Origin: Methanothermobacter thermautotrophicus str. Delta H
GTDB taxonomy: Archaea; Methanobacteriota; Methanobacteria; Methanobacteriales; Methanothermobacteraceae
Direction of reading: 5' to 3'
Assembly (NCBI RefSeq): GCF_000008645.1
Contig: NC_000916.1
Location: 240,001-272,000, forward strand
DNA: 32,000 bases
This document shows, piece after piece, positions 1,250-20,091 of this stretch; the first letter of the stretch is position 1; each line of letters begins with the position of its first letter. Both the position numbers and the translations under genes were made by a program. Under the pieces are notes generated by a model. It was not told the DNA's origin. It saw only the letters and a list, made by a program, of their open reading frames with translations, and did not search any database.

Positions 1250-1684
1250 GTGGTATTCATGACAGAGTCAGATTTTAGGGATTTCTATGATGTGCTTGTT
1301 GAAAACCTTGAATCATATAATGGGGAGTACGCATCCTTCATAGATTACGGGCCGAAACTCTTCAAGTTACTCACGGATTTTCTGGGCTATGAGCACCTTA
1401 AAGGCCAGCTTAAACTTAAGATTAGCGCTGCAATAGCCTACTACGTTGTTCCCATGGACATCATACCGGAGACAGTATACGGTGCATATGGCTACATCGA
1501 CGACATATTCATAACAGCATACGTTATAAGGATCCTGGCGGACGTTTACGGCTATGATCTACTCTCAGAGTACTGGGATGGGAAGGATGACCTTGAGGAG
1601 GTCGTCGAGCTCTGCTATGAGAGGTCAAAGGATGTCCTGAGGGATAAAACCAGTGATGTTCTGGATTATGTGGGGTTGCTCTGA
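1250..1684 (+). CDS. DUF1232 (YkvA-like) small protein, function unknown
   Basis: 144-aa ORF with GTG at 1250 and first ATG at 1259. The core 'YYVVPMDIIPETVYGAYGYIDDIFITAYVI' matches the D-x-IP...G-Y-x-DD signature I associate with DUF1232. Confidence 0.6.
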   Translation: MVFMTESDFRDFYDVLVENLESYNGEYASFIDYGPKLFKLLTDFLGYEHLKGQLKLKISAAIAYYVVPMDIIPETVYGAYGYIDDIFITAYVIRILADVYGYDLLSEYWDGKDDLEEVVELCYERSKDVLRDKTSDVLDYVGLL

Positions 1685-3892
1685 TCAGCTATTCTCAGGA
1701 ACCCTGTTCTCCCATTTCATATCTTCAAGGACTCCGAGGACGTTTCCAAGGGATTGCTTCTCTACACTGATTTCAATCAGAAGTTCGAAGCACTCATCAT
1801 CCCTGAGGATCATGCACTTCTTCATTGAGGGTATGAGGTCCCTCAGTTCATTCATGGTCTCAATGACAACGTTACCGCTCACAATACAGTTCATCATGAG
1901 GTTGAGGTTTTCGCCGTCAGGGTTTATGTAGAGTATCTCCTTCCTCTGGACACCATTATCTTCAGGTTCTTCCTTTAATGCTTCCTTCTCTGGTTCTATC
2001 AGGAGTTCTGTTTCTATGGTCTCTCTTGTGGGTTGTTCTGCCGGGGTTTCTGTTATAGGTTGTTCTGTTTCGAGGGTCTCTGTTGTGGGTTGTTCTGCCG
2101 GGGTTTCTTTTTCTGGTTCTGTTTCTAGGGTTTCTGTTATAGTTTGTTCTGTTTCTGTGATTTCTTTTTCTGGTTCTGTTCCCGGTTTCAGGGTTTCCCC
2201 TTCTGTTTCAATGTGTCTGAGGTAGAGCTCCTCGATCCCGGGGTTGCGTTTGAGGATGAATCCGTCGGGGGTTTCCTCCAGGAGGTCGTGGTCCTGGAGG
2301 GTCCAGATATTGGCGCGGAGGAGCTGAGGGTCATCAAAGGATTCCAGGAGGTCCTCCTCCCGGAAGGGTCCCTTCCCTGCGACTTTCCCGATCTCTGTGA
2401 ATATCTCCCATGCAACTATTTTAGCATAGCATTCCCGGCATTCCTCCCGCTTCCCATCAGAGTTACTGTGGAACTCTGACCTCTTCAGTGTCCTGCCACA
2501 TAGGGGGCATGTCCTCATCATCTTGGATTCTGATGGAAGCTCCCCCTCACCGTAGGCGTCATGGAAGGCCCTCAATTCCTCGTCGGGTTTCAACCTGTAG
2601 GTTTCAAGGGCAGGGTCGTTCTCAATGAGGTCAAAGTCCTGCAGGATCCAGATGTCAGCCATAACCCCCATCCTTTCATTCTCATCATCTATTATATCAT
2701 CGACGGTGAATTCCACTCCCGGTTCAACCAGCCTCCTTATCCTTACGAGGGCGTCTGCGGCGCAGCACTTCCTTGAGCATTCCCTGCACCTGGGGTCTTC
2801 TCCGTCCTTCAGCTGGAACTCTGTGACCGGTAGGGTCTCCCCACATATTGAGCATTCCAGTTCACCACCCTCAGGAGCCTCCTCCACCCCTGGGGCCACA
2901 GGTTCCTCTGTCTCAGGTCTGCACCTTTTTAGCTCCACGTTCTCTATGATGAACCTCTGGAGCTTATCATCCGGTCCCAGCCGGCACATCCCTGATTCAT
3001 GGTCATAGTCCAGGAGGCCGAACTCATCGAGTATCCAGGTCATGGCGATGAATTTTGTCCTGTCGGGATCATCCATGCCGGATGTGTATTCATTCACGTT
3101 GAACTCATCGCCGGGTTTAAAGATTTGCAGGATCTCCTCAAGGGACTCAAGGGCATAGAGGGTCCTTGAGCATTCCCTGCAGATCCCCTGGCACCTTTCG
3201 GTTTCTGTCTCAAGTTCCGCCATGCACCCACGGCAGAGCTCAGAGTCACTGCCAGGTTTCAGGGGCGCATTCGGATCATCTTCCAGTTTAACAGGCTCAT
3301 CCCTGGTTTTTTCTGATTTATGAGATCCCAGTCCAATGTAAGCGTAATAGTCAGTTTCAGGAGCACCCGATTTTTCATTCAGGTTCTCACCATCTTCTTC
3401 AGTTGAATATGGTCTGGGGCCTGTTTCTTCAGTTGAATTCAATGATTCCCGGGTGCTTCCTTCCTCTTCTGATCCACTCAGAGGCTCTCCGGGTGTCCCG
3501 GATTTCCTGAGGAGTGATTTAACCGCTGAGTTGAACCCCATGTTGAGTTCCATGAATTCTTCACATTTCCCGGTGAGGACATATTTTCTGCCACTGAGTC
3601 CCTTAGATCCATGCCTTTTTATGAACCCCCACCTTAGGAGTTTCCAGAATAGTCCTGTTTCAAGGCCCCTTTCATTGAATTCCTTCAGACTGAAGGGCCC
3701 CATACCCTCCAGTGATTCGATGGCCCTTAAAATCAGGTATCTATCGTAGCATTCACTGCAGACACATATATCATCCACACTGCAGTTCTTGCATGATGAA
3801 TCAGATGATTCATTGCCACATGAAGGACATATGAGTTCACGGGACTCTCTACGGCAGAGGACACAGTTATTCATACGGCATACTCCCCTCAA
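1685..3892 (-). CDS. Four-fold Zn-ribbon repeat protein with acidic T/E/P repeat linker and unassigned C-terminal domain (hypothetical)
   Basis: 735-aa uninterrupted ORF. It has four Cys4 modules ('CVLCRR..CPSCG..CSEC', 'CRGC..CRECS', 'CSICG..CRECS', 'CPLCG..CRECY'). Each is followed about 60 aa later by a conserved W-x-L-x-D/W motif ('LFWKLLRWGF', 'MTWILDEFGLLD', 'DIWILQDFDLIE', 'NIWTLQDHDLLE'). I recognise no family. Confidence 0.7.
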   Translation of the reverse strand: MRGVCRMNNCVLCRRESRELICPSCGNESSDSSCKNCSVDDICVCSECYDRYLILRAIESLEGMGPFSLKEFNERGLETGLFWKLLRWGFIKRHGSKGLSGRKYVLTGKCEEFMELNMGFNSAVKSLLRKSGTPGEPLSGSEEEGSTRESLNSTEETGPRPYSTEEDGENLNEKSGAPETDYYAYIGLGSHKSEKTRDEPVKLEDDPNAPLKPGSDSELCRGCMAELETETERCQGICRECSRTLYALESLEEILQIFKPGDEFNVNEYTSGMDDPDRTKFIAMTWILDEFGLLDYDHESGMCRLGPDDKLQRFIIENVELKRCRPETEEPVAPGVEEAPEGGELECSICGETLPVTEFQLKDGEDPRCRECSRKCCAADALVRIRRLVEPGVEFTVDDIIDDENERMGVMADIWILQDFDLIENDPALETYRLKPDEELRAFHDAYGEGELPSESKMMRTCPLCGRTLKRSEFHSNSDGKREECRECYAKIVAWEIFTEIGKVAGKGPFREEDLLESFDDPQLLRANIWTLQDHDLLEETPDGFILKRNPGIEELYLRHIETEGETLKPGTEPEKEITETEQTITETLETEPEKETPAEQPTTETLETEQPITETPAEQPTRETIETELLIEPEKEALKEEPEDNGVQRKEILYINPDGENLNLMMNCIVSGNVVIETMNELRDLIPSMKKCMILRDDECFELLIEISVEKQSLGNVLGVLEDMKWENRVPENS
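2028..2185 (-). repeat. Intragenic tandem repeat, 57-bp (19-aa) period, about 2.8 copies, encoding the ETPAEQPT-TETLETE acidic linker
   Basis: 'gtgggttgttctgccggggtttct' occurs at 2028-2051 and again at 2085-2108. 'tttctttttctggttctgtt' occurs at 2104-2123 and again at 2161-2180. Both pairs are offset by exactly 57 nt. Confidence 0.8.
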
Positions 3893-4070
3893 TACAGTAC
3901 AATTTAATGTTTTTTCATGTACTTAAAGTATTCACATTCATAGGGTTATAAAAAAATTTATCTATCAATCCTCAGAAATCTTTAAATGTGTTTAATACCG
4001 GGAAGGGGGTTTTCAAATAAAACAGAAGAGACTGGTTCCCACCGGGAAGCCAGGATTCTGGCTTCACAGG

Positions 4071-4784
4071 GTGGATGATGATGTTCTTGAAGATATATCA
4101 GAGAACCTGGTGATCGGGTCGGTGAAGAGGAGGGGGAAGCTAATAAACGAAATACGTGCCGGTGACAGGATATTCATCTTCAGGGCCATACCACTGAATG
4201 GAAGGAGGACGCTCTCATTCGTCGCCTACACCATGGTGGATGAGGTCTACAGTTCCCCTGAGACCCTCTATGATTACTATGAATCCCCAAGGAAGCTGAA
4301 ACTCCGGGGGATAAAGTTCTTCAACCCACCATTACCACTGATAAAGTTCCGGGACAAACTTGTTTCTGTTGAACCTAAAAGATGGTCATCCACACTCAAA
4401 TCAGAGTACAGAAGGATAGATGAGCGTGACTTCAGGATCATACGCTCCCGGGCGAACTTCATAGACAGATTCCCTGCCTACCTTGAGGAGCTATCCTTCA
4501 GCATGGACGAATTCCTCATCAACTCCATCATGGGCCTCCACAGCTTACTCAGGAGGACCGATGGCAGGAAGCAGATGGAGATAAGGTCCTTCATAAAACT
4601 CCTCGACGAGTTCATCAGAACGTACGGTATCAGGAAGTCCTATGAGGAGCTGGAGGAATTCTACTCAGTAAACGCCTGGAGGACCGGAATCAAACATTAC
4701 CCTTCAAGGGATCCCGAGAGGATAGTGACACTCTACAACAGCAGAGGGGCTGGAAGAGACTTTGGACTGATATCCCTGGAATAG
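4071..4784 (+). CDS. Hypothetical protein, first gene of a three-gene operon; possible PUA/EVE/ASCH-like N-terminal barrel (weak)
   Basis: 237-aa ORF with a GTG start; there is no in-frame ATG before codon 55. The N-terminal 'VIGSVKRRGKLINEIRAGDRIFIFRA...LSFVAYTMVDEVY...LKLRGIKFFNPPLPL' resembles small PUA-like folds, and the C-terminal half looks helical. Its TAG stop (4782-4784) overlaps the GGAGG ribosome-binding site of the next gene. Confidence 0.6.
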   Translation: MDDDVLEDISENLVIGSVKRRGKLINEIRAGDRIFIFRAIPLNGRRTLSFVAYTMVDEVYSSPETLYDYYESPRKLKLRGIKFFNPPLPLIKFRDKLVSVEPKRWSSTLKSEYRRIDERDFRIIRSRANFIDRFPAYLEELSFSMDEFLINSIMGLHSLLRRTDGRKQMEIRSFIKLLDEFIRTYGIRKSYEELEEFYSVNAWRTGIKHYPSRDPERIVTLYNSRGAGRDFGLISLE

Positions 4785-4794
4785 GAGGCTTAGT

Positions 4795-6030
4795 ATGGAC
4801 GCAGAAAGGATTATAAACGCCCTTAAAAATGGTAACGTCCCCCCGGATGGTGTGGGTGAGATATGCGTTGGTCGTGAGAGGGAGATTGAGGAGTTCGACA
4901 AGATCCTCGGCAAGGTGAAGGAGGGAGCTGCCATAACAAGGTTCCTCAATGGAGAGTTCGGGTCGGGGAAGTCGTTCTTCCTGAAATTACTCGAAGGGAG
5001 GGCCCTGGCAGATAACTTCGTCGTGGCGAAGGTAACCCTCAGCCGTGACGTTCCCTTCAACAAGTTTGAGGTTGTATACAGGAATATCGTGGCTTCACTC
5101 CGCTGCAAGACCGGCGTATCCCTTGAGCATATAATCGAAAAATGGATCACACAGCTCCGGATGATGTCCCTAAGGGAGACCACGGACCCCTACCAGCAGG
5201 AGAGGATTGTGCTGGACAACATCAGCAGTGACCTGAATGAGGTCCGGAAACATTCAACCACCTTCGCAGCTGCAATCGAGAACTACTACAAACTTTCAGC
5301 CAGGGGTGACAAGGAGACAGCAAGGTACGCCATGGGCTGGCTCAGCGGAGAGAAGAACATCCCCTTCACCATAAAGAGGCAGTTCGGGGTCAAGGGGGAC
5401 ATTGACAGGGAGAACGCCTTCAAGTACCTGGAGGCCCTCTCATCGTTCCTCAGGGCACTGAAGTATTCGGGGCTGATTATACTCATCGACGAGGCAGAGC
5501 ACATAATGACCCTCCACACCAAGAAGCTCAGGGACACGGCCTACGATTACATGAGGTTCATATACGATGAGTGCAGCATTGGAAGATTCCAGAACACCCT
5601 CTTCATATTTGCAGGCACACCCGAGTTCTTCGAGGACCCGAAGCTTGGAGTGCCATCCTACACAGCCCTCAATGAGAGGATAGAGGACGCCATCAAAACA
5701 GAATTCAAGGACCTCAGAAAACCCATCATCAGACTTGACGGTTTCAGGAGGGAGAACCTCCATGAGCTCTCCGAGAGACTCATAGCCATGCACGAGGAGG
5801 TCTATGGATGGGAGGCCAACCCTGTGAGGGAATCCCTCGATGGCATAATCTCAAGGCATGAGGCCAACGCTGAACTGACAGGTTACATCTCCCCCAGGAA
5901 CTTTGTCAAGTCATTCATAAGTGTCCTGGATGTTGTACAGCAGAACCCTGAACTCCGTGGCGAGGCCGAAATCCTGGATCTCTTCGAGGAGAAGGAGATG
6001 GAATTTGAGGAGGATGAGGACTGGGTCTAG
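4795..6030 (+). CDS. P-loop ATPase, DUF2791 / BrxD-like (BREX BrxC/BrxD-type ATP-binding protein family)
   Basis: 411 aa, with GGAGG at 4784-4788, 6 nt upstream of the ATG. The N-terminus 'INALKNGNVPPDGVGEICVGREREIEEF' is followed by Walker A 'GEFGSGKSFF' and Walker B 'LIILIDEAEH'. The family call (PF10923) comes from remembered signatures, not a search. Confidence 0.65.
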   Translation: MDAERIINALKNGNVPPDGVGEICVGREREIEEFDKILGKVKEGAAITRFLNGEFGSGKSFFLKLLEGRALADNFVVAKVTLSRDVPFNKFEVVYRNIVASLRCKTGVSLEHIIEKWITQLRMMSLRETTDPYQQERIVLDNISSDLNEVRKHSTTFAAAIENYYKLSARGDKETARYAMGWLSGEKNIPFTIKRQFGVKGDIDRENAFKYLEALSSFLRALKYSGLIILIDEAEHIMTLHTKKLRDTAYDYMRFIYDECSIGRFQNTLFIFAGTPEFFEDPKLGVPSYTALNERIEDAIKTEFKDLRKPIIRLDGFRRENLHELSERLIAMHEEVYGWEANPVRESLDGIISRHEANAELTGYISPRNFVKSFISVLDVVQQNPELRGEAEILDLFEEKEMEFEEDEDWV

Positions 6031-6080
6031 TCCCCCCATCCAGTATCTGGCCGTGCCAGGCACGCACCGGGAGCATTCTC

Positions 6081-8189
6081 ATGTCTGCAGAATCCCTGAA
6101 CCCCCGCCTCAGGCACTTCCTCGCAAACAGGCTCGGGTGGAGGAGCCTGCGGGATGTGCAGAAATCCGCCCTTGAAGCCATAGGGAGGGGCGAGGACACC
6201 CTCATAGTGGCACCCACTGCATCGGGTAAGACAGAGGCGGCTTTAATCCCGGTATTCAACTCCATACTCAGCGAGGGCCTTCCACCGGTCAGCATGCTCT
6301 ATGTATCACCCCTCAAGGCCCTCATAAATGACATGCACAGCCGCCTTGAACTGTGGGGCAACCACTTCAACCTGGAGGTCATGAAGTGGCACGGTGACGT
6401 ACCGGCAAACAGGAAGAGGAGGTTCATTAAGAACCCATCAGACATCCTCCTCATAACACCCGAGTCCCTTGAGGTCATGATGATCAACAGGAGCCGGGCC
6501 GAGAAGGAGAGGATCCTTGGAAACCTCCGCTACATCATCGTGGATGAGATACACCAGTTCATAGAGGCTGACAGGGGTGTTCAGCTGAACTCCCTCCTGG
6601 CAAGGCTTGAGAGGTACACAGGGGTGAGGCCCCAGCGGATAGGCCTCTCTGCAACCGTAGGAAACCCTGAAGAGGTTCTGAACTGGATGAGCCCATCCGG
6701 AGCTGTTGTGAGGGATACTGCCGAGAGGAAGCTCCAGTACAGGATATTCGAGTTAAATCACCATAAACTGATTGAGGTGCTGAGGAGGTTCACAGGGAAG
6801 AAGGTCCTCATATTTGTACCCTCACGCAGGGACGCCGAGAAGTACTACAACATCATAAGGAAGTGCCTGGATGTTGATGTCTTCATCCACCACTCATCCA
6901 TTAACCGGGACTCAAGGGAGGAGGCCGAGGAGAGGTTCAGGTCAGTATCAGCGGCCTTCATGGTGAACACCAGCACCCTCGAACTGGGTATAGACGTGGG
7001 TGACATCGACGTGGTGATCCACATAAGGAGCCCCACCAGCGTGAACAGGTTCCTCCAGAGGACCGGGAGGAGCGGCAGAAGGAGGGGCCTTCAGAGGACC
7101 ATAATATTCCAGGAGAAGGAGGCTCTAACAGCCCTCTCAGTGGCGTCCCTGGCCCTATCAGGGAGGCTTGAGGATCTGAGGATCCCGGTGAGGCCCCTTG
7201 ACATATACTTCCACCAGATCCTCAGCTCGGTATTTGAACTTGAGAAGCCCACTCCAGGGGATATCTACAGGGGACTTGGCAGGGCACATGTATTCTCGGA
7301 TCTGGATGCCGACGACTTCAGGCACCTGGTTGAATTCATGGTGGAGAACGACTTCCTCAGGGTCCATGGCCCCTACATCCACCATGGATTCAACTTCGAG
7401 AAGACCTTCGGTAAGATGAACTTCCTGGAGTTCTACACGGTCTTCCCACCCAACTATGAGTTCACAGTTAAACACCGCACAAAGGTCATAGGCTCCCTTG
7501 ACTCCTTCTTTGTCGTCACCTACCTCAAGGTGGGCAGGGGATTCATACTGGGTGGTGAGAAGTGGGTGGTGAAGGATATAGACCATGAAAGGTTCATCGT
7601 GAGGGTCAAACCCTGCACCAGGGATGCTGAAATACCTGACTGGAGCAGTGGAGGCGCCCCCACCACCTTTGAGGTTGCAAGGCACGTCTACGATATACTC
7701 CTCGGGGACTTCGACAGGGGCCTCCTGAGGTGGCTCGACCCGGGATCACAGGCCCGGGTCCAGTCGTGCATGGAGATGGCCTCAGCTGAGGGTCTGGACC
7801 ATGGCATGATCCCGGTGCGTATCGGGGAGAGGATAGAAATCAACACCTTCGCCGGGGAGAGGGTTAACGCCCTCATCTCCGATGTGTTCCGCCTTGAGCA
7901 CGGGGTCCACGGTATCAGTAACAGTGCCTTCACCTCATCCTTCAGTGCCAGACTTGATTACCATGACATTGAATCCACCCTCCGGGATATACCAGCCATC
8001 ATCTCAGAGGAGGACTTCCTCCTCAGATTGGAGGATAACCTTGACAGGTTTGTTAAGAACAAGTTCATAGAGCACCTCCCCGGGGACGTGGCCGCACATA
8101 TGAGGTACAGCCTCCTCTACAGGCCCGATGAACTGCTCAGGCTCCTCCGGGATAATGGACCCGTGGAGGTCCATGACTTCAAACTCTAG
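6081..8189 (+). CDS. Lhr-like SF2 DEIH-box helicase (COG1201-type; BrxHI-like)
   Basis: 702 aa. Motif I 'APTASGKTEAA', Ia 'SPLKALIND', Ib 'TPESL', II 'VDEIHQF', III 'LSATVGN', VI 'QRTGRSGRR', plus a C-terminal extension of about 330 aa. GGGAG at 6069-6073 lies upstream of ATG 6081. Confidence 0.8.
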   Translation: MSAESLNPRLRHFLANRLGWRSLRDVQKSALEAIGRGEDTLIVAPTASGKTEAALIPVFNSILSEGLPPVSMLYVSPLKALINDMHSRLELWGNHFNLEVMKWHGDVPANRKRRFIKNPSDILLITPESLEVMMINRSRAEKERILGNLRYIIVDEIHQFIEADRGVQLNSLLARLERYTGVRPQRIGLSATVGNPEEVLNWMSPSGAVVRDTAERKLQYRIFELNHHKLIEVLRRFTGKKVLIFVPSRRDAEKYYNIIRKCLDVDVFIHHSSINRDSREEAEERFRSVSAAFMVNTSTLELGIDVGDIDVVIHIRSPTSVNRFLQRTGRSGRRRGLQRTIIFQEKEALTALSVASLALSGRLEDLRIPVRPLDIYFHQILSSVFELEKPTPGDIYRGLGRAHVFSDLDADDFRHLVEFMVENDFLRVHGPYIHHGFNFEKTFGKMNFLEFYTVFPPNYEFTVKHRTKVIGSLDSFFVVTYLKVGRGFILGGEKWVVKDIDHERFIVRVKPCTRDAEIPDWSSGGAPTTFEVARHVYDILLGDFDRGLLRWLDPGSQARVQSCMEMASAEGLDHGMIPVRIGERIEINTFAGERVNALISDVFRLEHGVHGISNSAFTSSFSARLDYHDIESTLRDIPAIISEEDFLLRLEDNLDRFVKNKFIEHLPGDVAAHMRYSLLYRPDELLRLLRDNGPVEVHDFKL

Positions 8190-10206: not shown

Positions 10207-10971
10207 ATGAATGATCCCCCATTGATTGAGAATTATGTTACATACTCTGAAATACGTTCTCGGGTGAATGATAATAGAATGCTGGATCTAAGACAGTATT
10301 CCTGGTTCTATCCGACTACTCTTCTTCCCCTTTTCCATTTGAAGAAAACAAAATCTTTGAGGTGTGAGTTACATCCGGGTGTGAAGCATTATTTTGAGGT
10401 TATGGAACAGGGAAATCCTGGCAAAGGAAAAACATACATTCCCTTCGTTGAACTATTACATGACAGATCCGAAAGGGATCCTCTCAAATACGTATATGAT
10501 TTGTTAGATAAAAGTTATGGTGGGAAGGATGCTTTATGCTTTTTGCTCTCCGAGTTGACCGATAATATTTATCAGCATTCAAAATTCACCTCAGCTTATA
10601 TTCTGGCGCAAAAATATCCTAAGAAAGGTTTCATTGAGATATGTTTTCTTGATGATGGTGTAAGCATACCTCAGAATTTTGAGAATCATGATTATTACTT
10701 TGAATATGACTCTGAAGCAATAATACAAGCTATAAATGGAAAATCCACTAAAGTTACTTACCCTGGAGATCCTGAAAGAGGTTATGGTCTTAATAACATA
10801 CTTAAAATATTTGTTGAGGGTGGGAAAGGCGAACTATTAGTGGTGTCTAGAAAGGGGGCTTTTTATAAATCTCAGGATGCTAAGATGTATGAGTTAGGTA
10901 ATGAGTTTCAAGGGACATTAGTCAGCCTGCGCATACATGAAGGGAAGCTTAACATATATAAATACATTTAA
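10207..10971 (+). CDS. GHKL-superfamily ATPase / putative RsbW-SpoIIAB-like kinase with an unassigned N-terminal region
   Basis: 254 aa. N box 'ELTDNIYQHS', G1 'LDDGVSIP', G2 'ERGYGLNNI'. The gene is AT-rich relative to its flanks. Confidence 0.65.
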   Translation: MNDPPLIENYVTYSEIRSRVNDNRMLDLRQYSWFYPTTLLPLFHLKKTKSLRCELHPGVKHYFEVMEQGNPGKGKTYIPFVELLHDRSERDPLKYVYDLLDKSYGGKDALCFLLSELTDNIYQHSKFTSAYILAQKYPKKGFIEICFLDDGVSIPQNFENHDYYFEYDSEAIIQAINGKSTKVTYPGDPERGYGLNNILKIFVEGGKGELLVVSRKGAFYKSQDAKMYELGNEFQGTLVSLRIHEGKLNIYKYI

Positions 10972-11088
10972 CAAAATATAAACATAGGCACTGTTAGCTG
11001 AATACCATTTGTGGCTCTCTAGAAAAGTATATATGTATGTTAATGTGGTGGTAATCATCTTACCGTGGGAAAAGGACGGGATGTGGAT

Positions 11089-11409
11089 ATGAAAAATAAA
11101 ATTGAAAAGATACGGCTGGAAAAGCACATCGGTGCACTGCTGGCTTTCAGGGATTATGTGGATGATCTTTTTGAGGAGATAAACAGACTGGATGCGAATG
11201 TAATAGAATTAGATTTCGAAGGCGTGGAATTTATGAGTCGATCCTTCGCTCACGAGTACTTGATGCGAAAATCAAAGTCAGAAAAGGATATTTATGAAAA
11301 AAATAAGTGTCCTTCAATTCAGAAGATGTTAAGTGTTGTTGAAAGGTCCTTTAAGAATCCTCGAAAAATTAGGGTGACGCCTACACCGCATCCTATTAAA
11401 ATAGCTTAA
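11089..11409 (+). CDS. STAS-like DUF4325 domain protein
   Basis: The ORF is open from GTG 11065; the first ATG is at 11089 ('MKNKIEKIRLEKH'). 'VIELDFEGVEFMSRSFAHEYL' matches the DUF4325 core signature as I remember it. Confidence 0.6.
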   Translation: MKNKIEKIRLEKHIGALLAFRDYVDDLFEEINRLDANVIELDFEGVEFMSRSFAHEYLMRKSKSEKDIYEKNKCPSIQKMLSVVERSFKNPRKIRVTPTPHPIKIA

Positions 11410-11620: not shown

Positions 11621-14600
11621 TTATTTTATCTTTCTACGTCCACTGAGGAGGTAACCTGCACCCATGAGACCCACTATTGCAATGATGCCAATGAGGGCGT
11701 AAACTGGCATCTGTGTTGTCTCTGAAGTACCCTCTGTTGATGCTGCTACCTCATAAGCCTTTACATCACCATTTTCAGTGGGTGATGAGGATGCTGAGGT
11801 AGATTGTGAAACTCCTGCCGAACCTGAGGTTCCTGAAGATGTCGCTGCACTCATGGCATCGGATTCACCTCGTGATGAACCATCTGACACTGAATGTTCT
11901 CCATTGCCCTCGTTTGAGGGTTTATCTGTATCAGTAGCTGGAAGATTCTCTCCCCATGCGGCAGCCATTGTATGTTTGAACTTCTCAATCGCGGCACTGT
12001 TCAATGTTGAGAGGCTGACTATCCACTGATTCAGCACTATGTTGGCGCATGTATGATGGCAGCAGACAACACCATACTGATTCACCATGTTGATATACTC
12101 ATTGGCAAGGGAAGCCTTAACCTGGTCTGATGGGCTCCAGTAGCCCTTACGCACTGTTTCGATGAGCCTTGCAATAATTGAAGCCCTTGCATAGGGATTT
12201 GATTTGCTGAAGAATTCATTCAGACCCATGTCATAACTGTCCCTCACGTAGATGCTGTTCACCATATCCCATGTCGATTCAGATACCAGTTCTGGATTTG
12301 TAACCTGCCACATCCAGAGGTTCTCCACAAAGGAATCAATATACCTTGCACCGTCATAGCCGCCTTTCATCATACCCTCAATCCATCTGGGGTTGAGGTA
12401 TCTTGTCAGGAGGTCCCTTGTGAGGAACTGGCTCATCGTTTCTATCTTTGCATCACTGCGGAGGTTATTTATGTACATCTCTGGTTTTGAACCTGAAACT
12501 CTCTCCACTGCAAGGCTGAGGCCTCCGAAGTAGGCTGCTACCATTGGGTGTTCAAGGGCACCGTAGAGGTTTGAGCTCCTGCTGAACATGGCCACAGTCA
12601 CATCCATAAGGTTCTCCCTGAAGATGGAGGGAACCTTCAATCCAGTGATATTTTCACCGTAGGCCGATGAGACCCTCTCAAGGTAGAAACTGGCTAGCTG
12701 ATCACTGTTATTCCAGGTTTCACTTGCAGGTATTGCCTCCTGGAGGCCCGGTGAATAGGCGCCCGGTTCCTCAGAGAATATCCTGAGAAGGGATAATCTC
12801 CTTGCATCGGTCTCACTGAAACCTTCTCCCAGTAGTTTCAGGTAGATGGTTTCTGAGTTGTTCCTGATATGGTTGGGGGTGTCGCTGGCTCCAGCAGCGA
12901 GTTTAACTGCCCTGTCAATGAGGGTTATTATATCCATGTGAAGGTCCCTGTAGAGTCCTGAGGTAACCACTGTAATGTCGATGCGAGGCCTTGTAAGGTT
13001 TGTTATGAGTTCAACGTCCTTGACCCTGCCCTTTGAGTCCCATACAGGTTTAACACCCATGAGGTAGAGTATCTCTGCCTCCATTACTCCCTGGTGCCTC
13101 ATGGTCTCTGAGGCCCACAGGACGAATGCAACCTTTGTGGGATAGGTTCCATGTTTACTCAGGTAATCCTCAAGGAAGCTGTCAACGAGTTTCACTGCAG
13201 TTTCCCATGCAGTTCTGGTTGGAATTGTCCTTGAATCCAGTGGATATGGGTTTCTTCCTGTTGGGAGAGCATCAGGGTTCCTTATAGGGTCACCTCTGGG
13301 ACCGGGTGTTATGTATCCACCTTCAAGGGCTGTGAGTATGGCTGTTATCTCGCTGGTGCAGTTACGGATTCTCTGTGTATACTCAATGGCAAGCTGGAGG
13401 TAGCCTGTTATGGTAGCATTTAAGCTACCAGTGGTTCTGATCTGAGCCTCTTCGGGTGTGAGGTTGTTCAGCACGACCTCCCTCAGCAGACTCTCTGTAG
13501 CTGTCCCATTGATTGGGGGCAGCATCGCAATTAATAGCTGTATGAGTTCTTCGCCTTCGGGTGCTCTTCCAAGGACATGTGGTCCATAGGGTATGTAGCT
13601 TTTTCTGATATCATCAAGGTATGCTGTGACATCTGCGAGGAATTCATCGAAACTGTCGCCTGTGTAGTTGAATCCCACTGTCCGGCTCTGGTTTATGATT
13701 TTATCACGGTAAGCATTCTTCAGGGTGTCATCAACGGTTTCCATGTATAGTCTGATGTTATCATAGAGTTCGGAGAGGTTTCCGTAGAGTCCGGAGGGTA
13801 TAAGTACGGGTGTCATGAAGTTTATGATCAGCATGTTTGCCCTTCGCTTGTCAAAGATTGCGGGGGCGTCCATGGGGAGCACGTGGATTATGGGCATGTC
13901 CTGGAGTAAAACAGCGCCCCAGTCCTTGCTTGATAGGCCCTCCTGTTTTCCCGGCATCAGGGGCACGAGACTGAACACTGATAGTATGGCGTCTGCACGG
14001 TAGACCTTCCTCATCCACCAGTAGAATGCGAGCAGGTTGTGGGTCGGTGGAAGTTTCCCTGTATTGTAGAGTGTGGTGTTATCCTGCAGCCAGCCCCACA
14101 CCGGTTCAGGGGCGAGTAGGATGTTTCCGAATTCCAGTTTTGGTATGACAATGTACTTTCCGGTGCTGTTCGTATAGACCATCAGGTTTCCCAGGGGCGG
14201 GGCCCCATGCATCTGTGACCTCCCTCTGCATATCCAGAGGCAGTTCGCTGAACCAGTTGAGGTATTCATCCTCCGGTATCAGTATGACACTTCCAGATTT
14301 CACCCTGTTTTCAAGTTCACCGGGCGCCCATGTGCCCACATTGCTTCCAACTTCTGCCATGAGGTGTGCGAGTTCTGCCTCTCCGGGCAGTGTTCTGTTG
14401 CCGACGTTGTATCCCCTCTCCTGCATTGCTTTCAGTATCGCTGCTATGCTTGCCTGGGCATTGAGATAGTAGTCGATGTCTGCACCAACATTCGCCTTCC
14501 CCCCACCCTCACTGTAGTAGGTTATCACAATCTTCTTGTCATGGTTGCTGAGTTTTTTGAGGTTCATCCAAGAGATGGTCCTCTTCACTAGCCACTCTAT

Positions 14601-15707
14601 CTGGTAATCTATGGGCCTGTTGTATATGACACCCGTAAGAGGGTCGGTTTCCTTGACGCTTATGACTATGGGCTCTATTATCCCATCCATCTCTGCAAGG
14701 GATAACTGGTAGACTTCAGAGCAAGGCACGCCCTGGGTGCTGTTCTCCCAGGATGTGAGGTTCATGCTGGTTGAGAATATTCTGATACCGTTGAGAACCG
14801 TGACGTTGAGTTTCTGAAGATCCTCAACACCTCCTGTCCAGTTCTGTGAATTCAGAGTGGCACCCCTTGAGATTAACACCGCGGCATCGATGATTGCCTT
14901 TCCATTTAACATGATATATTTCATTGAATTGGCGTCCCTGTAGGTGTAGGTTGAGACTATGACGTTGACATTCTTTGACTCGAAGCTCCTTACAAGTGCA
15001 TCCAGTAGTGGACCGTCCCTTGCCATGTCCGTGTACTCTGTGCTCAGTATCCCGACGGTTGGGAAGCCTTCATGGTATCTGCCTGTCCCCCTGTACCAGT
15101 CCAGGTATTCTGTGAGATTACCGAATATCTTCGGTGCATCTGGATGGTATATGCCCCAGAGTGGGCGCTGTTCAGGTGCTGATGGGGTCACATTGAGGTT
15201 GCAGAATGACGCCGCCAGGTAGAGGATGAGGTTCTTCAGGTTCCTCTCGCTGGTATAGTTGAGGTATCTGAGGCTTTCATTGAACCGGGGGTCTGATGTG
15301 CTCACTGTCTGGAGGTTCAGGATCGGCGCGTAACTGTCTCTTGCCAAGGGTTCAACGCATATCATTATGGTTGAGCCACTGTCCCGGGCAGCTCTCAGTT
15401 TATCGCTGAGGGCCTCCCATACAGGTGAGGAAAGACCACTCCTTGTGCCGAAGATTATCACGTCGCCGCTTATATTGTAAGTGAGGTTGGTTTCTGTTCT
15501 ACCGCTCTCTGCCCGTACCTTTATGATGTTTCTAATGTCGCTGTCATTGGCCACCCGGTTTAGCAGTGCAATTTCATTGGGACTTGAGCTCACTATGAGT
15601 ATCTCTGGCATGCTCTGGTTCTGTGCTGTGCCGTTCTCTGCGAATGATGTCCCGCTTGCTGCAAATAGACAGATCACAAGTGCAGTGTATAGTATATGCT
15701 TCTTCAC
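11621..15707 (-). pseudogene. CobN/ChlH-type chelatase large-subunit homologue, secreted and C-terminally anchored, split by a single-base frameshift
   Basis: Two overlapping minus-strand ORFs. ORF 14106..15707 (533 aa) has a GTG start preceded by GGTGAG and the signal-like 'MKKHILYTALVICLFAASGTSFA'. ORF 11621..14269 (882 aa) ends in an S/T-rich linker, the anchor 'VYALIGIIAIVGLMGAGYLL' and 'SGRRKIK'. '..TDAWGPAPG' in the upstream frame continues as 'NLMVYTNSTGKYIVIPKLEFGNILLAPEP' in the +1 frame. This corresponds to the WG-x-PPG ... GN-hydrophobic-x-QP stretch of CobN/ChlH. The span is 4087 nt (3n+1), so one extra base splits the gene. It most likely lies in the GGGAAA / GGGGCCCCGCCCC runs at 14187-14210. 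Confidence 0.75.
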
Positions 15708-15765
15708 AAGCTCACCTTTTTCAGGTTTATTTTAAAATATTTCAAGTAAAACTTAAAAAAGGAGG

Positions 15766-15773
15766 TATATAAA
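15766..15773 (-). promoter_or_regulatory. TATA box (TTTATATA on the minus strand) for the CobN-like gene
   Basis: The plus strand reads 'tatataaa', giving the exact consensus on the coding strand 59 nt upstream of the GTG start. A GGTGAG ribosome-binding site sits at 15711-15716. Confidence 0.4.
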
Positions 15774-16055
15774 TCTTGTTAACAATTTTTTATTTTATAT
15801 TATTACAGGCTGTGGCCTTGCAGGTAGGCGCATCTTCCTTGTGGAATGATCCCCGTGCTGAAACATGTGGGGTGTATCTTCCTTTTTTTGGGGGTGCTGT
15901 ATCCTCTTGATTATTCATGAGCCCCTTCATATCTTCTGGATGAGAATACATGTTCTTATGGGTCGTTGTTATCCCCTGGACTAGCCCACTTCAGCTGTTT
16001 TTTTTTCTAATTCCGTGGACACAGCGCAGGAGGGATGCCTCTTTTTATTTTTTGA

Positions 16056-16277
16056 GTCCATATTCCAGGGCGCGGGGCGCGGGATGACGTCCCTCATGCT
16101 CTCGGTGATAAGGCAGGTCCTCCTGGTGGCTGTCTTCGCTTACCTCCTTGCCGTGACCCTGGGCCTCGGCGAGGCGGTGTCTGGTGGGGTGTCGTTGCAG
16201 GTGACATCGGGGGTAGCCTGGTGGCCTACTGTGGGCCAGACTCTTCATCGGGAGGCTCAGGAGGTACGCTGTCTGAT
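16056..16277 (+). pseudogene. Decayed duplicate of the last ~74 codons of the MATE gene (paralogous to 9836-10059)
   Basis: Hand alignment shows the first 73 nt identical. About 9 substitutions and two 1-nt deletions follow ('gaggttggtg' vs 'gaggcggtg'; 'cctacctgtggg' vs 'cctactgtggg'), which break the frame. The TGA is conserved at 16274-16276. There is no upstream MATE coding sequence. Confidence 0.9.
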
Positions 16278-16463
16278 ACCTCCTCATGGGCAGCTGGTGG
16301 GTTATCTTTCTGTTCCGGCTGCGGCACTGATCATCCCTACATTCTTTATTGTTTCTTCGTGGTCTCTCTGGGCGCACTGAATAACTGCTCTGAGTAGATT
16401 AATCTGAATCATTTCAGTGAGGAGACTGGAGAGGTCCAGAGTTTTAGAGATCTCAGTCATATG

Positions 16464-16620
16464 ATAGAATTGGAGAATTTATGAGTCGATCCTTCGCTCA
16501 GGAGTACCCGACGCGAAAATCAGGGATATCCATGAAAGATAAGAATCCAGAAGATCAGATGTTGTTGAAAGATCCGTTAAGAATCCTAGAGTGATGCCCA
16601 CGTTGCATAATCCCATTAAA
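16464..16620 (+). pseudogene. Decayed duplicate of the 3' two-thirds of the DUF4325 gene (paralogous to 11203-11400)
   Basis: A 26-nt identical core 'gaatttatgagtcgatccttcgctca' occurs at 16475-16500 and at 11227-11252. The flanking sequence is alignable with several indels, through to '..cattaaa'. There is no start codon and no intact frame. Confidence 0.8.
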
Positions 16621-17028
16621 TGGCCTGTTGGTTCACTCTATTTTATGTGAGGCTTCTGCCTGTGAATTCTTCGAGCCTGTCTTAAAGCACAGTAAGCCAT
16701 GAGATACTGAATGTATTTTAAGATGAGGACTGGTAAGCTCTCCCGGGCACTTGAAGACTATGCCTGTAAACTTTATCAAATCATTCTCAATATAGATTTC
16801 GGGCGCTGGCGGTTACTAGACTGGCAATAATCTCTTTATCATACATATCCAAATTTAATTCAAAAAATAAAAAATTAAACAGACTCTTTCCTGATTTTTG
16901 GCGGAAGTGAACTCCTATCAGCTTAATAAGGGATACTCTGTAGAGATTCAACAACACAGAGCATATAAATATTATAAGTTATATAATTCGTTGTAGCAGA
17001 AAAGACCGCAGGAGCAGGTGATTTTTTT

Positions 17029-17310
17029 GTGGCTATGTACAAATTAGAACTCCCCATATCAATTGAAAGAGAAGGAAACTGGTTCATTGCAATCTGCGAG
17101 CCATTTAATGTGGTCAGTCGAGGTAAAAGTGAGGAAAGTGCAGTAGAAAATCTTAAAGAGGCCCTTGAGTTATTTTTAAATGATGAGGATGTTCTGAGAC
17201 AATATTCTACCAAGATCAAGAAATTCGTGGTGCCAAAAAAGGAGCAGTATGTGAGTGTTGAAATACATGACTGGGAGGATACCGCCCCTATCAGGAGTGG
17301 AAGTCTGTAA
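17029..17310 (+). CDS. hicB: HicB-family antitoxin (UPF0150-like)
   Basis: 'MYKLELPISIEREGNWFIAICEPFNVVSRGKSEESAVENLKEALELFL' is the HicB N-terminal fold signature. ATG at 17035, GTG at 17029. The 3' end overlaps the hicA start. Confidence 0.75.
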   Translation: MAMYKLELPISIEREGNWFIAICEPFNVVSRGKSEESAVENLKEALELFLNDEDVLRQYSTKIKKFVVPKKEQYVSVEIHDWEDTAPIRSGSL

Positions 17311-17496
17311 AGCTCTCCAGAAGGATGGTTTCAAGAATGCAGGTGGAAAAGGAAGTCACAGGAAACTTAAAAAAGTAGATAAAGAGGTCCGGTTGTTATT
17401 GTCCCACTTCATGACGAAATTGCACCAAAGACTCTGAATTCTATTCTTAAACGGGCAAAGATAACACGTGAAAGATTTCTGGAGCTTCTAAAATAA
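17267..17496 (+). pseudogene. hicA: HicA-family mRNA-interferase toxin, disrupted by a 1-nt deletion
   Basis: The N-terminal frame gives 'MTGRIPPLSGVEVCKALQKDGFKNAGGKGSHRKLKKVDKEVR' and then runs into nonsense ('LLLSHFMTKLHQRL*'). Shifting frame at about 17390-17392 gives the canonical HicA C-terminus 'VVIVPLHDEIAPKTLNSILKRAKITRERFLELLK*', with stop at 17494-17496. The span is 230 nt (3n-1). Confidence 0.8.
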
Positions 17497-17969
17497 CGGC
17501 TCTGTAGAAATCATATTTGCGGTTTTCACCTGCCCCTGAGATGATGTTTGTGTTCATTTTTCTTGCCGTTGAATGTCCCCTACATACTCCACTGTTTATA
17601 TTTTCCGGTTTATTGGGTATCCCTTGAATCGTGTTTAGGGCTTCATTGAAGACTGAGCAAGTATATTATCCAGGTGTCCACGAGCAGTTGTGTAACTTTT
17701 CCCACTATGGCTTTATAAGCGCAGACTTACTGGTCCTTTTCCATAAATGGTGATCCACTGGACCTCCATGCAGTAAATGCACCGTCCCAGCAGTTCACCC
17801 ATATCCGATGCATCTGAGAATTTCCTGGTAGTATGAGAATCATAAAGCCAGATCACTGAAGACATTAAACTAATGATGTGAATTCACGGTAACTCATGCC
17901 TCAGATGGCTCTTCAAGCATAACAGATCTATGTTCAGTGCGCTCCTAGATTTGACATGATATGTGAAAA

Positions 17970-18872
17970 TTAGGCTGATAATCTCATTAATTTACCGTCC
18001 CATCTCATCTGGAAATAGGTCTTATCCTCTAATTTTGTTCCGGGTGTGAAATAATATTGTGGTTTTGATATGGTTGCTCCTGGCCCTGAACCTCCCCTCC
18101 GGGTTTCAGGGTCAAAGTAGCCTCTCCCTGCTAATAGTTCAAGGTCCCCCATGAAATTCAGGTTTTTATCATATTTTAAGTGGCTGATTAAGAACTCACT
18201 GGATACCGTAACGCTGTCTTCGACTTTCACTTCAAATGGGGGATCTATTTTGTTAACTCCATCAAGGAGTACGTGCCCGAAGCCGTATTTTGACTCTCCC
18301 CCCAGAATGAGCTCCTGGATGATATTGAAGTTATCGATAAAGATTCCGGCATCGACATCCACTTCCCTGTTATTTATTTTTGCATCTTCTTTGATCCAGA
18401 TCCATCCTGTGACTTTAACGTCTTCTGGGGTCTCGGTTTTGTCGCACGATTTGTTATTTATGAATTCAATCTCGTGAAGGCTCTGATCCTTTGCGGTTGA
18501 AAAACCGGGCTCAATGGCTGTGGATATCTGACTGCCTATAAATCTATGTTCAAATTCTGCTCTGGTTATCTTAATATCATGACCGTATTTAATCCCTTCA
18601 TCTGTGTAGGATGGAGAATAGATCGTCTTTCCATCATAGATATAGAAATATGAGAATACAAAATTATTCATGATGTCTTTACCGGTATTCTTATAATGAT
18701 GGGCAGCAGGTTTTTTGAAGAGATTTTCTGCTGTCCTTTTTGTCACAGCACCCCACAGGTTCCTTCCGGGAATATAATATCTTGTGGGTGAAACCACCGA
18801 GCTCTTAGATGGTAGATAGCCAATATGGAGTGGGGTTTTTAACTTAAACACAACATTGATCGTTCTCCACAT
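17970..18872 (-). CDS. cmr3: Type III-C CRISPR-Cas Cmr3-like (Cas5 group RAMP)
   Basis: 300 aa, last gene of the operon. RAMP G-rich loop 'GGESKYGFGHV'. The call rests on position after cmr5, as in type III-B/C operons. Confidence 0.7.
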   Translation of the reverse strand: MWRTINVVFKLKTPLHIGYLPSKSSVVSPTRYYIPGRNLWGAVTKRTAENLFKKPAAHHYKNTGKDIMNNFVFSYFYIYDGKTIYSPSYTDEGIKYGHDIKITRAEFEHRFIGSQISTAIEPGFSTAKDQSLHEIEFINNKSCDKTETPEDVKVTGWIWIKEDAKINNREVDVDAGIFIDNFNIIQELILGGESKYGFGHVLLDGVNKIDPPFEVKVEDSVTVSSEFLISHLKYDKNLNFMGDLELLAGRGYFDPETRRGGSGPGATISKPQYYFTPGTKLEDKTYFQMRWDGKLMRLSA

Positions 18873-18875
18873 CCC

Positions 18876-19259
18876 TCATTCCCCTGCCTTTGCATGATAC
18901 AGAGAATAAATCAAGGTGCGTTCAATGAGTCTCTTCATGAACAGTAATTTGTAGATATCCCGGGCAACATCTCTTAGTCTTTCACAGAACTCTTTGAAAC
19001 TGTCGGGAAAACTGGATGAATCCTCCAAGAGGCACTCTCTTATTTCTGGCCTGTTTAACATATCAGTGAGTTCTTTCCTTACCCTCTTCTTTTCTTTGTC
19101 CTCTAACCAGAGAAACATTGCATAAACTCCATCTTCCTGCAAAACTCCAAGGGCTTTCCTAAGATGGTTTGCAAGATTTCTGTCGCTTTTTACAGCTATT
19201 TTCTGCGCGCACTGCATGCATATATAGTCAAGGTTTAACATCAGTTCCCACCTGTTCAT
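18876..19259 (-). CDS. cmr5: Type III-C small subunit Cmr5-like (Cas11)
   Basis: 127-aa protein that looks all-helical, lying between cmr4 and cmr3. The start is uncertain: Met codons at 19259, 19241 and 19217, the first two overlapping the cmr4 3' end. Confidence 0.65.
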   Translation of the reverse strand: MNRWELMLNLDYICMQCAQKIAVKSDRNLANHLRKALGVLQEDGVYAMFLWLEDKEKKRVRKELTDMLNRPEIRECLLEDSSSFPDSFKEFCERLRDVARDIYKLLFMKRLIERTLIYSLYHAKAGE

Positions 19260-20091
19260 CTTCAGAATGTTCTGCAGCTAATTCAAGCCTGCCGAATCCC
19301 CTTGTAACCATTCCACCTATCCCGAGATATTTAAGGTATGGTGAGACAGCATTTAATACTTCCTTTCTCTTTTCATCTTTCTCAGTGGCAATTTCAAATC
19401 CAAAGATGGTCCCCCTGGGTATCGCCTCATAAGTGAACAATGCCCCTTCCACTGCCGTTCCGGTTTCGGGATCTATCCGTACGGATGTTCTCACTTCAAG
19501 ATTATCATTTACAATCGGAGAGAATAAATTTTCAGGTACTATGACAGCCCTTTTTATCCATTCATTTATCTCATCTGGTAAATCAACATCTTCCTTTTTT
19601 TCTGAGTTCACTTCGAAAAGTAACCAGCCAAGATTCAATCTTCCGTTCAGCTCCCCTCTGATCGCATAGACCTTATTTTCATCTTCATAGCTTATTTTTT
19701 CGTCTTTTACACACCAGTAGTTAAAAAGTTGTTCTGTTGTGATCCATACTGTGCCCCTGACTGAGGAGACAGGGAAGAATAATATCTGTCCATCATAGAA
19801 TCGTAGAACGCCTTTTTTGTTTTCATCGCCAAAGATAGATTTAGCCTTTTCTTCTGCACGTTTTCTCTTTTCTTCAGCACTTTTATCTCCGAACTCATTC
19901 TCCGCCAGGTATGCTGTGTAGAACTCTCTTGTAACTCCTGCAATCGAGGTTCCAGGTATTTTTGGAATATCCGTCGATGGTTCCCTTACAATTGTGTTAT
20001 CTGCTCTTCCCAGTCTGTAACCACCTGCCCCTATATGGACGGGGTCAAGGGCTCTTGCATATACTTTCTCAGGCTCTAAAGATCTATTCAT
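19228..20091 (-). CDS. cmr4: Type III-C Cmr4-like backbone subunit (Cas7 group RAMP)
   Basis: 'LDPVHIGAGGYRLGRADNTIVREPSTDIPKIPGTSIAGVTRE', 'IFGDENKKGVLRFYDGQILFFPVSSVRGTVWITT' and the G-rich loop 'GIGGMVTRGFGRL' are the Cmr4 hallmarks. Confidence 0.8.
   Translation of the reverse strand: MNRSLEPEKVYARALDPVHIGAGGYRLGRADNTIVREPSTDIPKIPGTSIAGVTREFYTAYLAENEFGDKSAEEKRKRAEEKAKSIFGDENKKGVLRFYDGQILFFPVSSVRGTVWITTEQLFNYWCVKDEKISYEDENKVYAIRGELNGRLNLGWLLFEVNSEKKEDVDLPDEINEWIKRAVIVPENLFSPIVNDNLEVRTSVRIDPETGTAVEGALFTYEAIPRGTIFGFEIATEKDEKRKEVLNAVSPYLKYLGIGGMVTRGFGRLELAAEHSEDEQVGTDVKP

Follow-up and report, generated by a model that had tools for sequence, protein, structure and literature searches.

The Shango system consists of the TerB-domain protein SngA, the ATPase SngB and the helicase SngC, and protects against phages (Millman et al., 2022; Johnson et al., 2022). 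In P. aeruginosa PA14, the Shango papers place a TerB-like protein, an ATPase and a DEAD/DEAH helicase at consecutive loci. A 2026 survey of BREX (bacteriophage exclusion) systems describes BrxD as an ORC/Cdc6-type AAA+ ATPase that lacks a DNA-binding domain, is tightly linked to the helicase BrxHI and may load or activate it; type 2 BREX was not found in archaea in that survey. Archaeal DUF499 systems combine a COG1743 methyltransferase, a Cdc6/ORC-like ATPase, an SWI2/SNF2 helicase-nuclease and a stand-alone EVE protein (Bell et al., 2020), and a 2026 survey in Nucleic Acids Research treats them as ‘BREX-related’. EVE domains are modified-base specificity modules in many restriction and toxin-antitoxin systems (Bell et al., 2020), and EVE and YTH relatives bind modified bases in RNA and DNA. 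Here, we describe a gene block of Methanothermobacter thermautotrophicus str. Delta H in which a BrxD/SngB-type ATPase and a BrxHI/SngC-type helicase follow an EVE-winged-helix protein. The block lies in a stretch of 32,000 nucleotides (contig NC_000916.1, positions 240,001 to 272,000), which we refer to as the window and number from its first letter. From homology and by analogy with Shango, we lean towards reading the block as a nucleic-acid surveillance module of Methanobacteriales, most probably an anti-virus or anti-plasmid defence, with the EVE-winged-helix protein in place of TerB. In the literature on Shango, the EVE census, the 2026 BREX survey and reports on archaeal DUF2791, DUF1232, BrxD or BrxHI, we found no description of this block.

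The core of the block is formed by three open reading frames (ORFs) on the plus strand (Table 1), with gaps of 10 nucleotides (nt) between genes 1 and 2 and 50 nt between genes 2 and 3. Reading the sequence, we find the TAG stop of gene 1 at 4782-4784, a GGAGG ribosome-binding site overlapping this stop, and the ATG of gene 2 at 4795. A preliminary description of the window had reported the same three plus-strand frames, the same gaps and the same overlap, and all of them are borne out by the sequence. The proteins of the window were compared with the profile libraries Pfam, PADLOC-DB v2 and NCBIfam, and AlphaFold models were compared by Foldseek. For counts of conservation, 56 loci were pooled into 31 lineages, and the denominator of each fraction is the number of lineages that could be assessed.

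Gene 2 matches PF10923 (BrxC_BrxD) with an E-value of 1.6e-103, the family to which the preliminary description had pointed. It also matches the PADLOC profiles of BrxD (1.8e-78) and SngB (PDLC03959, 2e-73, profile positions 11-413 of 439), and it reaches 260.5 bits on the NCBIfam BREX_BrxD equivalog, under the cutoff of 350. By these profiles gene 2 is a DUF2791 ATPase of the BrxD/SngB type. The Walker A motif GEFGSGKS and the Walker B motif LIILIDEAEH are present in the translation and conserved in 18 of 18 lineages.

The helicase encoded by gene 3 aligns almost from end to end with BrxHI (PADLOC, 7.7e-160, profile positions 5-673 of 698) and with SngC (PDLC03960, 1.5e-125, profile positions 9-697 of 720). 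Its Pfam matches are DEAD, Helicase_C and WH_Lhr (PF19306, E=7.6e-9), and the DEAD-associated Domain 4 (PF08494) has no Pfam match in it. The motifs APTASGKT, DEIH, SAT and QRTGRSGR are found in the translation, and all 18 lineages retain motifs I, Ia, II, III and VI. Since the catalytic motifs of both genes are intact in every lineage counted, genes 2 and 3 are predicted to encode working enzymes under purifying selection. The motifs named in the preliminary description are thus found in both proteins, and its view of gene 3 as a DEIH helicase of the Lhr/COG1201 kind stands, except that the DEAD-associated domain it expected has no match.

The archaeal housekeeping helicases aLhr1 and aLhr2 share with gene 3 an SF2 (superfamily 2) DExH core followed by an Lhr-type winged helix. 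Unlike them, gene 3 has no Domain 4 match, and its scores on the Lhr equivalogs fall far under the cutoffs (PRK13767, 253.7 bits against 849; TIGR04121, 257.3 against 850). For these two reasons we place it in the ‘Lhr-like’ group, which is mostly bacterial and whose scattered archaeal members are regarded as horizontal acquisitions (Hajj et al., 2021). Gene 3 is, by its profile matches, an ‘Lhr-like’ helicase of the BrxHI/SngC type and neither aLhr1 nor aLhr2. As its flanking genes also vary between genera, we ruled out a housekeeping aLhr orthologue in fixed synteny, a possibility that had been named at the outset as one that would undo the proposal.

The block resembles Shango in its three-gene core of a sensor-like protein, a DUF2791 ATPase and an Lhr-like DEAD/DEAH helicase. 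SngB and SngC are homologous to genes 2 and 3 over nearly their full length, and neither system encodes a nuclease or a methyltransferase. In contrast to Shango, the first gene of the block encodes an EVE domain plus a winged helix and no TerB domain, and the block usually adds two further genes, encoding a large cysteine-rich protein that we call BigZn and a small DUF1232 protein. It is also archaeal and confined to Methanobacteriales, and its two enzymes score somewhat better on the BrxD and BrxHI profiles than on those of SngB and SngC. No TerB domain and no SngA match was found in gene 1, BigZn, the DUF1232 protein or the other scanned ORFs of the window, and on the TerB criterion true Shango is ruled out.

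Type 2 BREX (Pgl) offers the best profile matches of genes 2 and 3, BrxD and BrxHI, which form the same tightly linked pair, and its helicase has the same architecture of an SF2 core, a winged helix and an Lhr-like C-terminal domain. It differs in that gene 2 stays under the NCBIfam BrxD equivalog cutoff and that PglX, PglZ, BrxC/PglY and PglW are not detected in the window or among the called genes of the related loci. The profile scans, which also included TerB, detect no PglX, PglZ, PglW, BrxC or TerB gene across the 32 kb, as had been proposed from the sequence, and a complete or partial BREX system is ruled out. The preliminary description had called the trio a stand-alone operon. This is right as far as BREX genes are concerned, but two further conserved companions, BigZn and the DUF1232 protein, are usual.

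Gene 1 as called has no match to any Pfam or PADLOC model. A profile built from 18 gene 1 homologues, however, matches the EVE proteins MJECL36 (2p5d, 2.2e-14) and PH1033 (1wmm, 2.9e-6), and both matches cover profile positions 7-135, that is, the whole domain. In an exhaustive search the same profile reaches stand-alone proteins of about 145 amino acids (aa) that score 84-93 bits on PF01878, while members of the gene 1 family score a borderline 15.7, 21.7 and 24.0 bits on this model (cutoff 23). NCBIfam PRK00809 matches gene 1 at 5.9e-7, and one homologue is named ‘EVE domain-containing’ by NCBI. Foldseek ranks 2p5d first for the gene 1 model (E=6.5e-4, probability 1.0), and YTH is among the structural matches. 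The N-terminal half of the model is beta-rich with a pLDDT (predicted local distance difference test) of 60-70, and it was built without the beta1 strand.

Residues 145-237 of gene 1 are modeled with a pLDDT of about 90 and show a helix-strand-helix-helix-strand-strand topology. According to this model, the C-terminal half is a winged helix. After the EVE match, the best structural matches of the C-terminal domain include the winged helices of ORC, Cdc6 and Cdt1, which are weak matches (E about 0.2-1, Foldseek probability up to 0.66). An H-x-P-S-R-D-P motif is invariant in this domain, and the whole protein holds 38 invariant residues at an overall identity of 37-46% between genera. By its profile matches, gene 1 carries a divergent EVE domain, joined to a predicted winged helix. 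The earlier suggestion of a PUA/EVE-like N-terminal half and a helical C-terminal half is supported, with EVE named by profile and Foldseek and the helical half being the winged helix. One metagenome contig carries a gene 1 that is 100% identical.

When compared with the stand-alone EVE proteins of the UPF0310 type (2p5d, 1wmm), the N-terminal 135 or so residues of gene 1 align along the whole length. Gene 1 differs in adding a winged helix of about 100 aa with the H-x-P-S-R-D-P motif, in standing in an ATPase-helicase operon, and in having, in some lineages, two fused EVE-plus-helical modules. Five such tandem relatives (P0043, P0044, P0051, P0072 and P0074) are 415-634 aa long, and their first copy lacks the C-terminal H-x-P-S-R-D-P tail. 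The archaeal EVE-DUF499 systems likewise bring together an EVE reader, an ORC/Cdc6-like AAA+ ATPase and an SF2 helicase. Their ATPase is DUF499 rather than DUF2791 and their helicase SWI2/SNF2 rather than Ski2/Lhr-like, whereas the block has no methyltransferase or fused nuclease and carries its EVE domain fused to a winged helix in the first gene of the operon.

The start of gene 1 probably lies upstream of the call. The beta1 strand of the EVE domain, [FY]W[IL]H[RK] (‘FWLHR’ in the window), is encoded 5' of the called GTG at 4071, and between the in-frame stop at 3993-3995 and 4071 the window has no ATG, GTG or TTG. At least 15 of the 30 lineage representatives have no canonical start upstream of the beta1 motif. 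Instead, an ATA or ATT precedes the motif at a distance that hardly varies, usually 16-17 codons and in Methanothermobacter 12-14, and it directly follows a GG-rich element resembling a Shine-Dalgarno (SD) sequence. Equivalent near-cognate positions are seen in L001, L007, L011, L017, L021, L023 and other loci, and a few lineages have an ATG near this position. In the window, the SD-like GGAAGGGGG at about 4001-4009 stands 7 nt 5' of ATA 4017. Because the beta1 strand lies upstream of the GTG and no canonical start is available there, gene 1 is probably translated from a near-cognate AUA or AUU codon, which in the window would be ATA 4017 and would give a protein of 255 aa. With such a start, gene callers truncate the protein to 232-237 aa. 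The boundary at 4071 in the preliminary description is therefore probably off by 54 nt, as the conserved strand is encoded upstream of it. If confirmed, the AUA/AUU start would be an unusual case of archaeal near-cognate initiation.

The order of the genes is kept across the lineages. Gene 2 follows gene 1 in 30/30 and gene 3 follows gene 2 in 22/23, so that the trio recurs with the same first gene across genera, a point that the preliminary description had proposed to check. BigZn lies upstream on the opposite strand in 23 of the 25 lineages, and a DUF1232 gene stands beside BigZn in 14 of 17. At the loci with gene 1 homologues of 37-46% identity, a large opposite-strand gene precedes the trio without exception. 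The conserved unit is usually one of five genes, not three. The trio of Ca. Methanovirga has no such companions and is flanked by housekeeping genes. All loci that could be assigned belong to Methanobacteriales, namely Methanothermobacter, Methanobacterium, Methanobrevibacter (including M. smithii) and Ca. Methanovirga, and gene 2 is 52-66% identical across several genera.

Two loci were considered as signs of transfer to bacteria and rejected. One is a contig of a metagenome-assembled genome labeled ‘Spirochaetales’ (P0245), which carries the full block and is taken to be archaeal. In the other (L055, 3981-9283), the trio stands beside sugar-utilisation genes of the Intestinibacter bartlettii type (GH32, PTS IIBCA and LacI). 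The contig most likely arose when metagenome assembly joined DNA of M. smithii to that of Intestinibacter, and we left it out of the counts.

The genes flanking the block vary between genera and are often defence genes. In Methanobacterium they include an LmuB-like SMC ATPase, a NERD protein and a DUF1232-AlbA_2 fusion; another lineage has a PLD nuclease, an SF1 (superfamily 1) helicase and a type III restriction-modification system; M. marburgensis has HepT/MNT pairs and a KAP NTPase. In the window, type III CRISPR RAMP genes are located about 10 kb downstream of the block. Meanwhile, we notice a decayed copy on a 490-kb contig of M. smithii (L054, 10718-14387), where only the N-terminal 214 aa of gene 2 are left and gene 3 has been lost; in place of the missing parts, the contig encodes a TPR protein and a GmrSD-type (type IV restriction) protein. 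The M. smithii clusters for gene 2 and BigZn contain many short called products, some of them on contigs of more than 1 Mb.

A variable gene is found close behind the helicase gene or overlapping it in other genera (L001, 12150-13955; L007, 12197-13900; L004, 12326-14919). It encodes a TPR protein of about 600 aa, a 567-aa double-zinc-ribbon protein, or a 63-aa ORF together with an LmuB-like SMC ATPase. These genes may be accessories of the module or parts of neighbouring systems.

BigZn and the DUF1232 gene are arranged tail-to-tail with zero spacer. Counted from Met7 of the ORF, a start taken from the alignment of orthologues, BigZn has 729 aa. Its architecture comprises four units of a zinc ribbon (CxxC...CxxC) and a winged helix, an acidic disordered linker and a small C-terminal alpha/beta domain. 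The ten CxxC motifs make five pairs, two of which are in the first unit (residues 10-48) and one in each later unit, at about 220, 347 and 462. The AlphaFold model has a pLDDT of 80-90 for repeats 2-4 and low confidence for the C-terminal domain, and the winged helices match MarR/PadR/HxlR with a Foldseek probability of 1.0. No family match for BigZn was found in Pfam, PADLOC or NCBIfam, and its orthologues weakly match Stc1, DZR or HTH. Orthologue lengths range from 474 to 1559 aa. BigZn evolves faster than any other gene of the block, with 53% identity to M. marburgensis and 75% to another M. thermautotrophicus assembly in which the rest is 90-97% identical; its closest relative, 99% identical, is named M. 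thermautotrophicus.

The DUF1232 protein has 144 aa as called, and probably starts at ATG 1259, which gives 141 aa as in its homologues. PADLOC-DB v2 holds no model for gene 1, BigZn or the DUF1232 protein. Between BigZn and gene 1, the AT-rich intergenic region presumably contains the promoters of both genes, and a search for operator-like repeats in it returned only short, imperfect AT-rich inverted repeats. We also notice a second DUF1232 domain in Methanobacterium (L004, 3448-4638), fused to Schlafen/AlbA_2 in a 396-aa protein that adjoins the DUF1232 gene of the module and the NERD protein. The fusion is a hint that conflict systems reuse DUF1232 as a building block.

We infer a defence role for the block because genes 2 and 3 are homologous to experimentally validated defence components, because the trio remains linked with its catalytic motifs intact, and because the locus behaves as an accessory one, with varying flanks, defence-gene neighbours, decay in M. 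smithii and a fast-evolving BigZn. Homology and context make this role plausible. In the mechanism we propose, the EVE domain of gene 1 would recognise a base modification of foreign DNA or, possibly, of RNA, and the winged helix would hold the duplex. Gene 1 would then recruit or activate the ORC/Cdc6-like ATPase of gene 2, which itself has no DNA-binding domain, and the ATPase would load or activate the Lhr-like 3'-5' helicase of gene 3 on the marked molecule. By unwinding or stripping this molecule, the helicase might block its replication or expose it to host nucleases. BigZn and the DUF1232 protein would probably form a second, rapidly diversifying layer of DNA recognition, regulation or anchoring, and the near-cognate AUA/AUU start probably keeps the level of the reader protein low. 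The preliminary description had taken the trio for a sensor-swapped relative of Shango and BREX. Its ATPase-helicase pair and its EVE-winged-helix first gene fit this idea, but the usual unit is the five-gene block.

Several observations weigh against a defence role. The conserved block encodes no nuclease, toxin or methyltransferase, so that no effector is evident, a gap that it shares with Shango. M. marburgensis, which carries the block, is the permissive host of the virus psiM1/psiM2, so the module fails to stop this virus, at least. The gene 1 protein of the window itself stays below the Pfam EVE threshold (15.7 vs 23 bits), and we know of no ligand for EVE proteins of the UPF0310 type. 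The census is incomplete, as a pattern scan of species representatives gave 7 loci and missed carriers such as M. marburgensis. A virus- or provirus-borne element was considered and rejected, as no gene 1 relative was found among IMG/VR viral contigs. In Methanothermobacter, the block occupies one chromosomal site adjoining MarR-MatE in four species or strains (M. marburgensis, two M. thermautotrophicus-type genomes and M. wolfeii). The trio diverges about as much as the flanking genes; identities to M. marburgensis are 83% for gene 1, 90% for gene 2, 76% for gene 3 and 87% for DUF1232, against 68% for MarR and 85% for MatE. The block has a host-like GC content, and the repair genes HerA(-NurA) adjoin it in the window and in one M. 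thermautotrophicus assembly. The pattern in Methanothermobacter looks like vertical inheritance of a resident function. It also agrees with the earlier statement that the block is not a recent import, which the fixed MarR-MatE position in the four species or strains fits.

The main rival, which we hold to be rather unlikely, is a lineage-specific role in genome maintenance. Here the EVE-winged-helix protein would act on the cell's own chromosome and read a base that is damaged or naturally modified, or a stalled intermediate; the ATPase would load the helicase for repair, replication restart or R-loop removal, and BigZn would be a chromosomal DNA-binding partner or regulator. The fixed site, the host-like GC content and the flank-like rate of divergence in Methanothermobacter agree with this role, as do the missing toxin or nuclease, the absence of the block from the viral contigs and the adjoining HerA, which is accompanied by NurA in assembly L020. 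Helicases of the Lhr family work in repair, aLhr2 has both DNA and RNA duplexes as substrates, and the spread over several genera at the gene 2 identities given above is compatible with old vertical descent. Yet the closest profiles are those of defence families and not repair equivalogs, and the helicase falls in the ‘Lhr-like’ group rather than with the widespread aLhr1 and aLhr2. The adjacency to HerA-NurA is limited to one genus, Methanothermobacter. Decay of the locus, seen in at least one M. smithii contig, and the absence of gene 3 from one lineage do not suit a maintenance function, and neither do the frequent defence genes nearby in other genera and the very fast evolution of BigZn.

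Two further explanations seem less probable still. The first is a module that works on RNA. Its EVE domain would recognise base modification in tRNA, rRNA or viral transcripts, RNA or RNA:DNA hybrids would be what the helicase unwinds, and the outcome would be RNA quality control or interference at the transcript level. EVE/YTH relatives do bind modified RNA bases as well as DNA, YTH appears among the structural matches, and archaeal aLhr2 displaces RNA from RNA:DNA and RNA:RNA hybrids. Nevertheless, the C-terminal domain of gene 1 and the four BigZn modules with MarR/PadR matches are winged helices of the type that binds duplex DNA, the ATPase belongs to the ORC/Cdc6 type of DNA loaders, DNA is the presumed substrate of the BREX and Shango relatives, and nothing in our analysis points specifically to RNA; we regard this explanation as quite improbable. 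The block might also be a remnant or dormant cassette, a BREX-type accessory pair captured long ago from bacteria, with chance-linked genes and little current function. The view that archaeal Lhr-like sequences are horizontal acquisitions (Hajj et al., 2021), the absence of type 2 BREX from archaea in the 2026 survey and the existence of truncated copies would fit. Against this, the same order and orientation of five genes is kept in at least four genera and in 31 lineages, the catalytic motifs are intact in 18/18, gene 1 keeps its 38 invariant residues, and even the unusual start codon is conserved. Such purifying selection is not expected of a relic, and a remnant is highly improbable.

Within the reading of the block as a surveillance module with an EVE-winged-helix protein in place of TerB, we speculate on a more specific arrangement, which we offer tentatively and consider unlikely as it stands. 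The EVE-winged-helix protein could be the missing DNA-binding winged-helix subunit of the BrxD-like ATPase. The two proteins would then make up a split helicase loader that is licensed by base modification and places the helicase on foreign-modified DNA, with BigZn and DUF1232 as a second layer.

Table 1. Features of the block and their positions in the window
Feature	Position	Strand	Basis or remark
DUF1232 (YkvA-like) small protein	1250-1684	+	PF06803, E=1.7e-9
BigZn, large Cys-rich zinc-ribbon/winged-helix protein	1685-3874	-	divergent from gene 1
AT-rich divergent intergenic region	3875-4016		sequence reading
Gene 1, EVE (PUA-like) domain + C-terminal winged helix	4017-4784	+	255 aa if ATA 4017 is the start
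Gene 1 as called	4071-4784	+	ORF call, 237 aa
Ribosome-binding site of gene 2 (GGAGG)	4784-4788	+	overlaps final base of the gene 1 TAG
Gene 2, BrxD/SngB-type ORC/Cdc6-like AAA+ ATPase (DUF2791)	4795-6030	+	411 aa, PF10923
Gene 3, BrxHI/SngC-type Lhr-like SF2 (DEIH) helicase	6081-8189	+	702 aa; winged helix + C-terminal domain

Other genes of the window were examined as well. At its left edge, the HerA-type helicase gene (22-1182, DUF87, 3.3e-53) extends past the window, and in assembly L020 NurA precedes its counterpart. Downstream of the block, a low-GC islet at 10207-11409 (0.37-0.40 vs about 0.55-0.60 over the preceding 4 kb) encodes a 254-aa protein with a weak match to PADLOC PDC-M65A (2.6e-5) and a 114-aa STAS-like DUF4325 protein. 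This is the pair that the preliminary description had listed as GHKL/STAS, and it may be a separately acquired candidate defence pair. On the minus strand, a CobN/Mg-chelatase is encoded at 11621-15707 in two overlapping ORFs, of which 14106-15707 covers profile positions 2-361 and 11621-14269 covers positions 355-1088. The split suggests a frameshifted gene, whether by decay to a pseudogene, by an error in sequencing or by recoding. A type III CRISPR-Cas effector cluster follows on the minus strand (17970-24481) with four RAMP-family genes and two proteins of 977 aa and 127 aa without a Pfam match, the larger of which may be Cas10-like. The stretch from CobN to the type III cas genes (15500-18200) was searched for a CRISPR array, and none was detected.

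As a natural variant in which a recognisable reader stands where Shango has TerB, the block leads to a testable idea, namely that the first gene senses and the ATPase loads the helicase. A defence role, if true, would add a defence system to Methanobacteriales, the group of the dominant methanogens of the human gut and the rumen. If the arrangement as a split loader also proves true, it would provide the first mechanistic model for the ATPase-helicase pair of Shango and type 2 BREX, and the block would stand as an archaeal immune system in its own right, one that the human-gut methanogen M. smithii carries.

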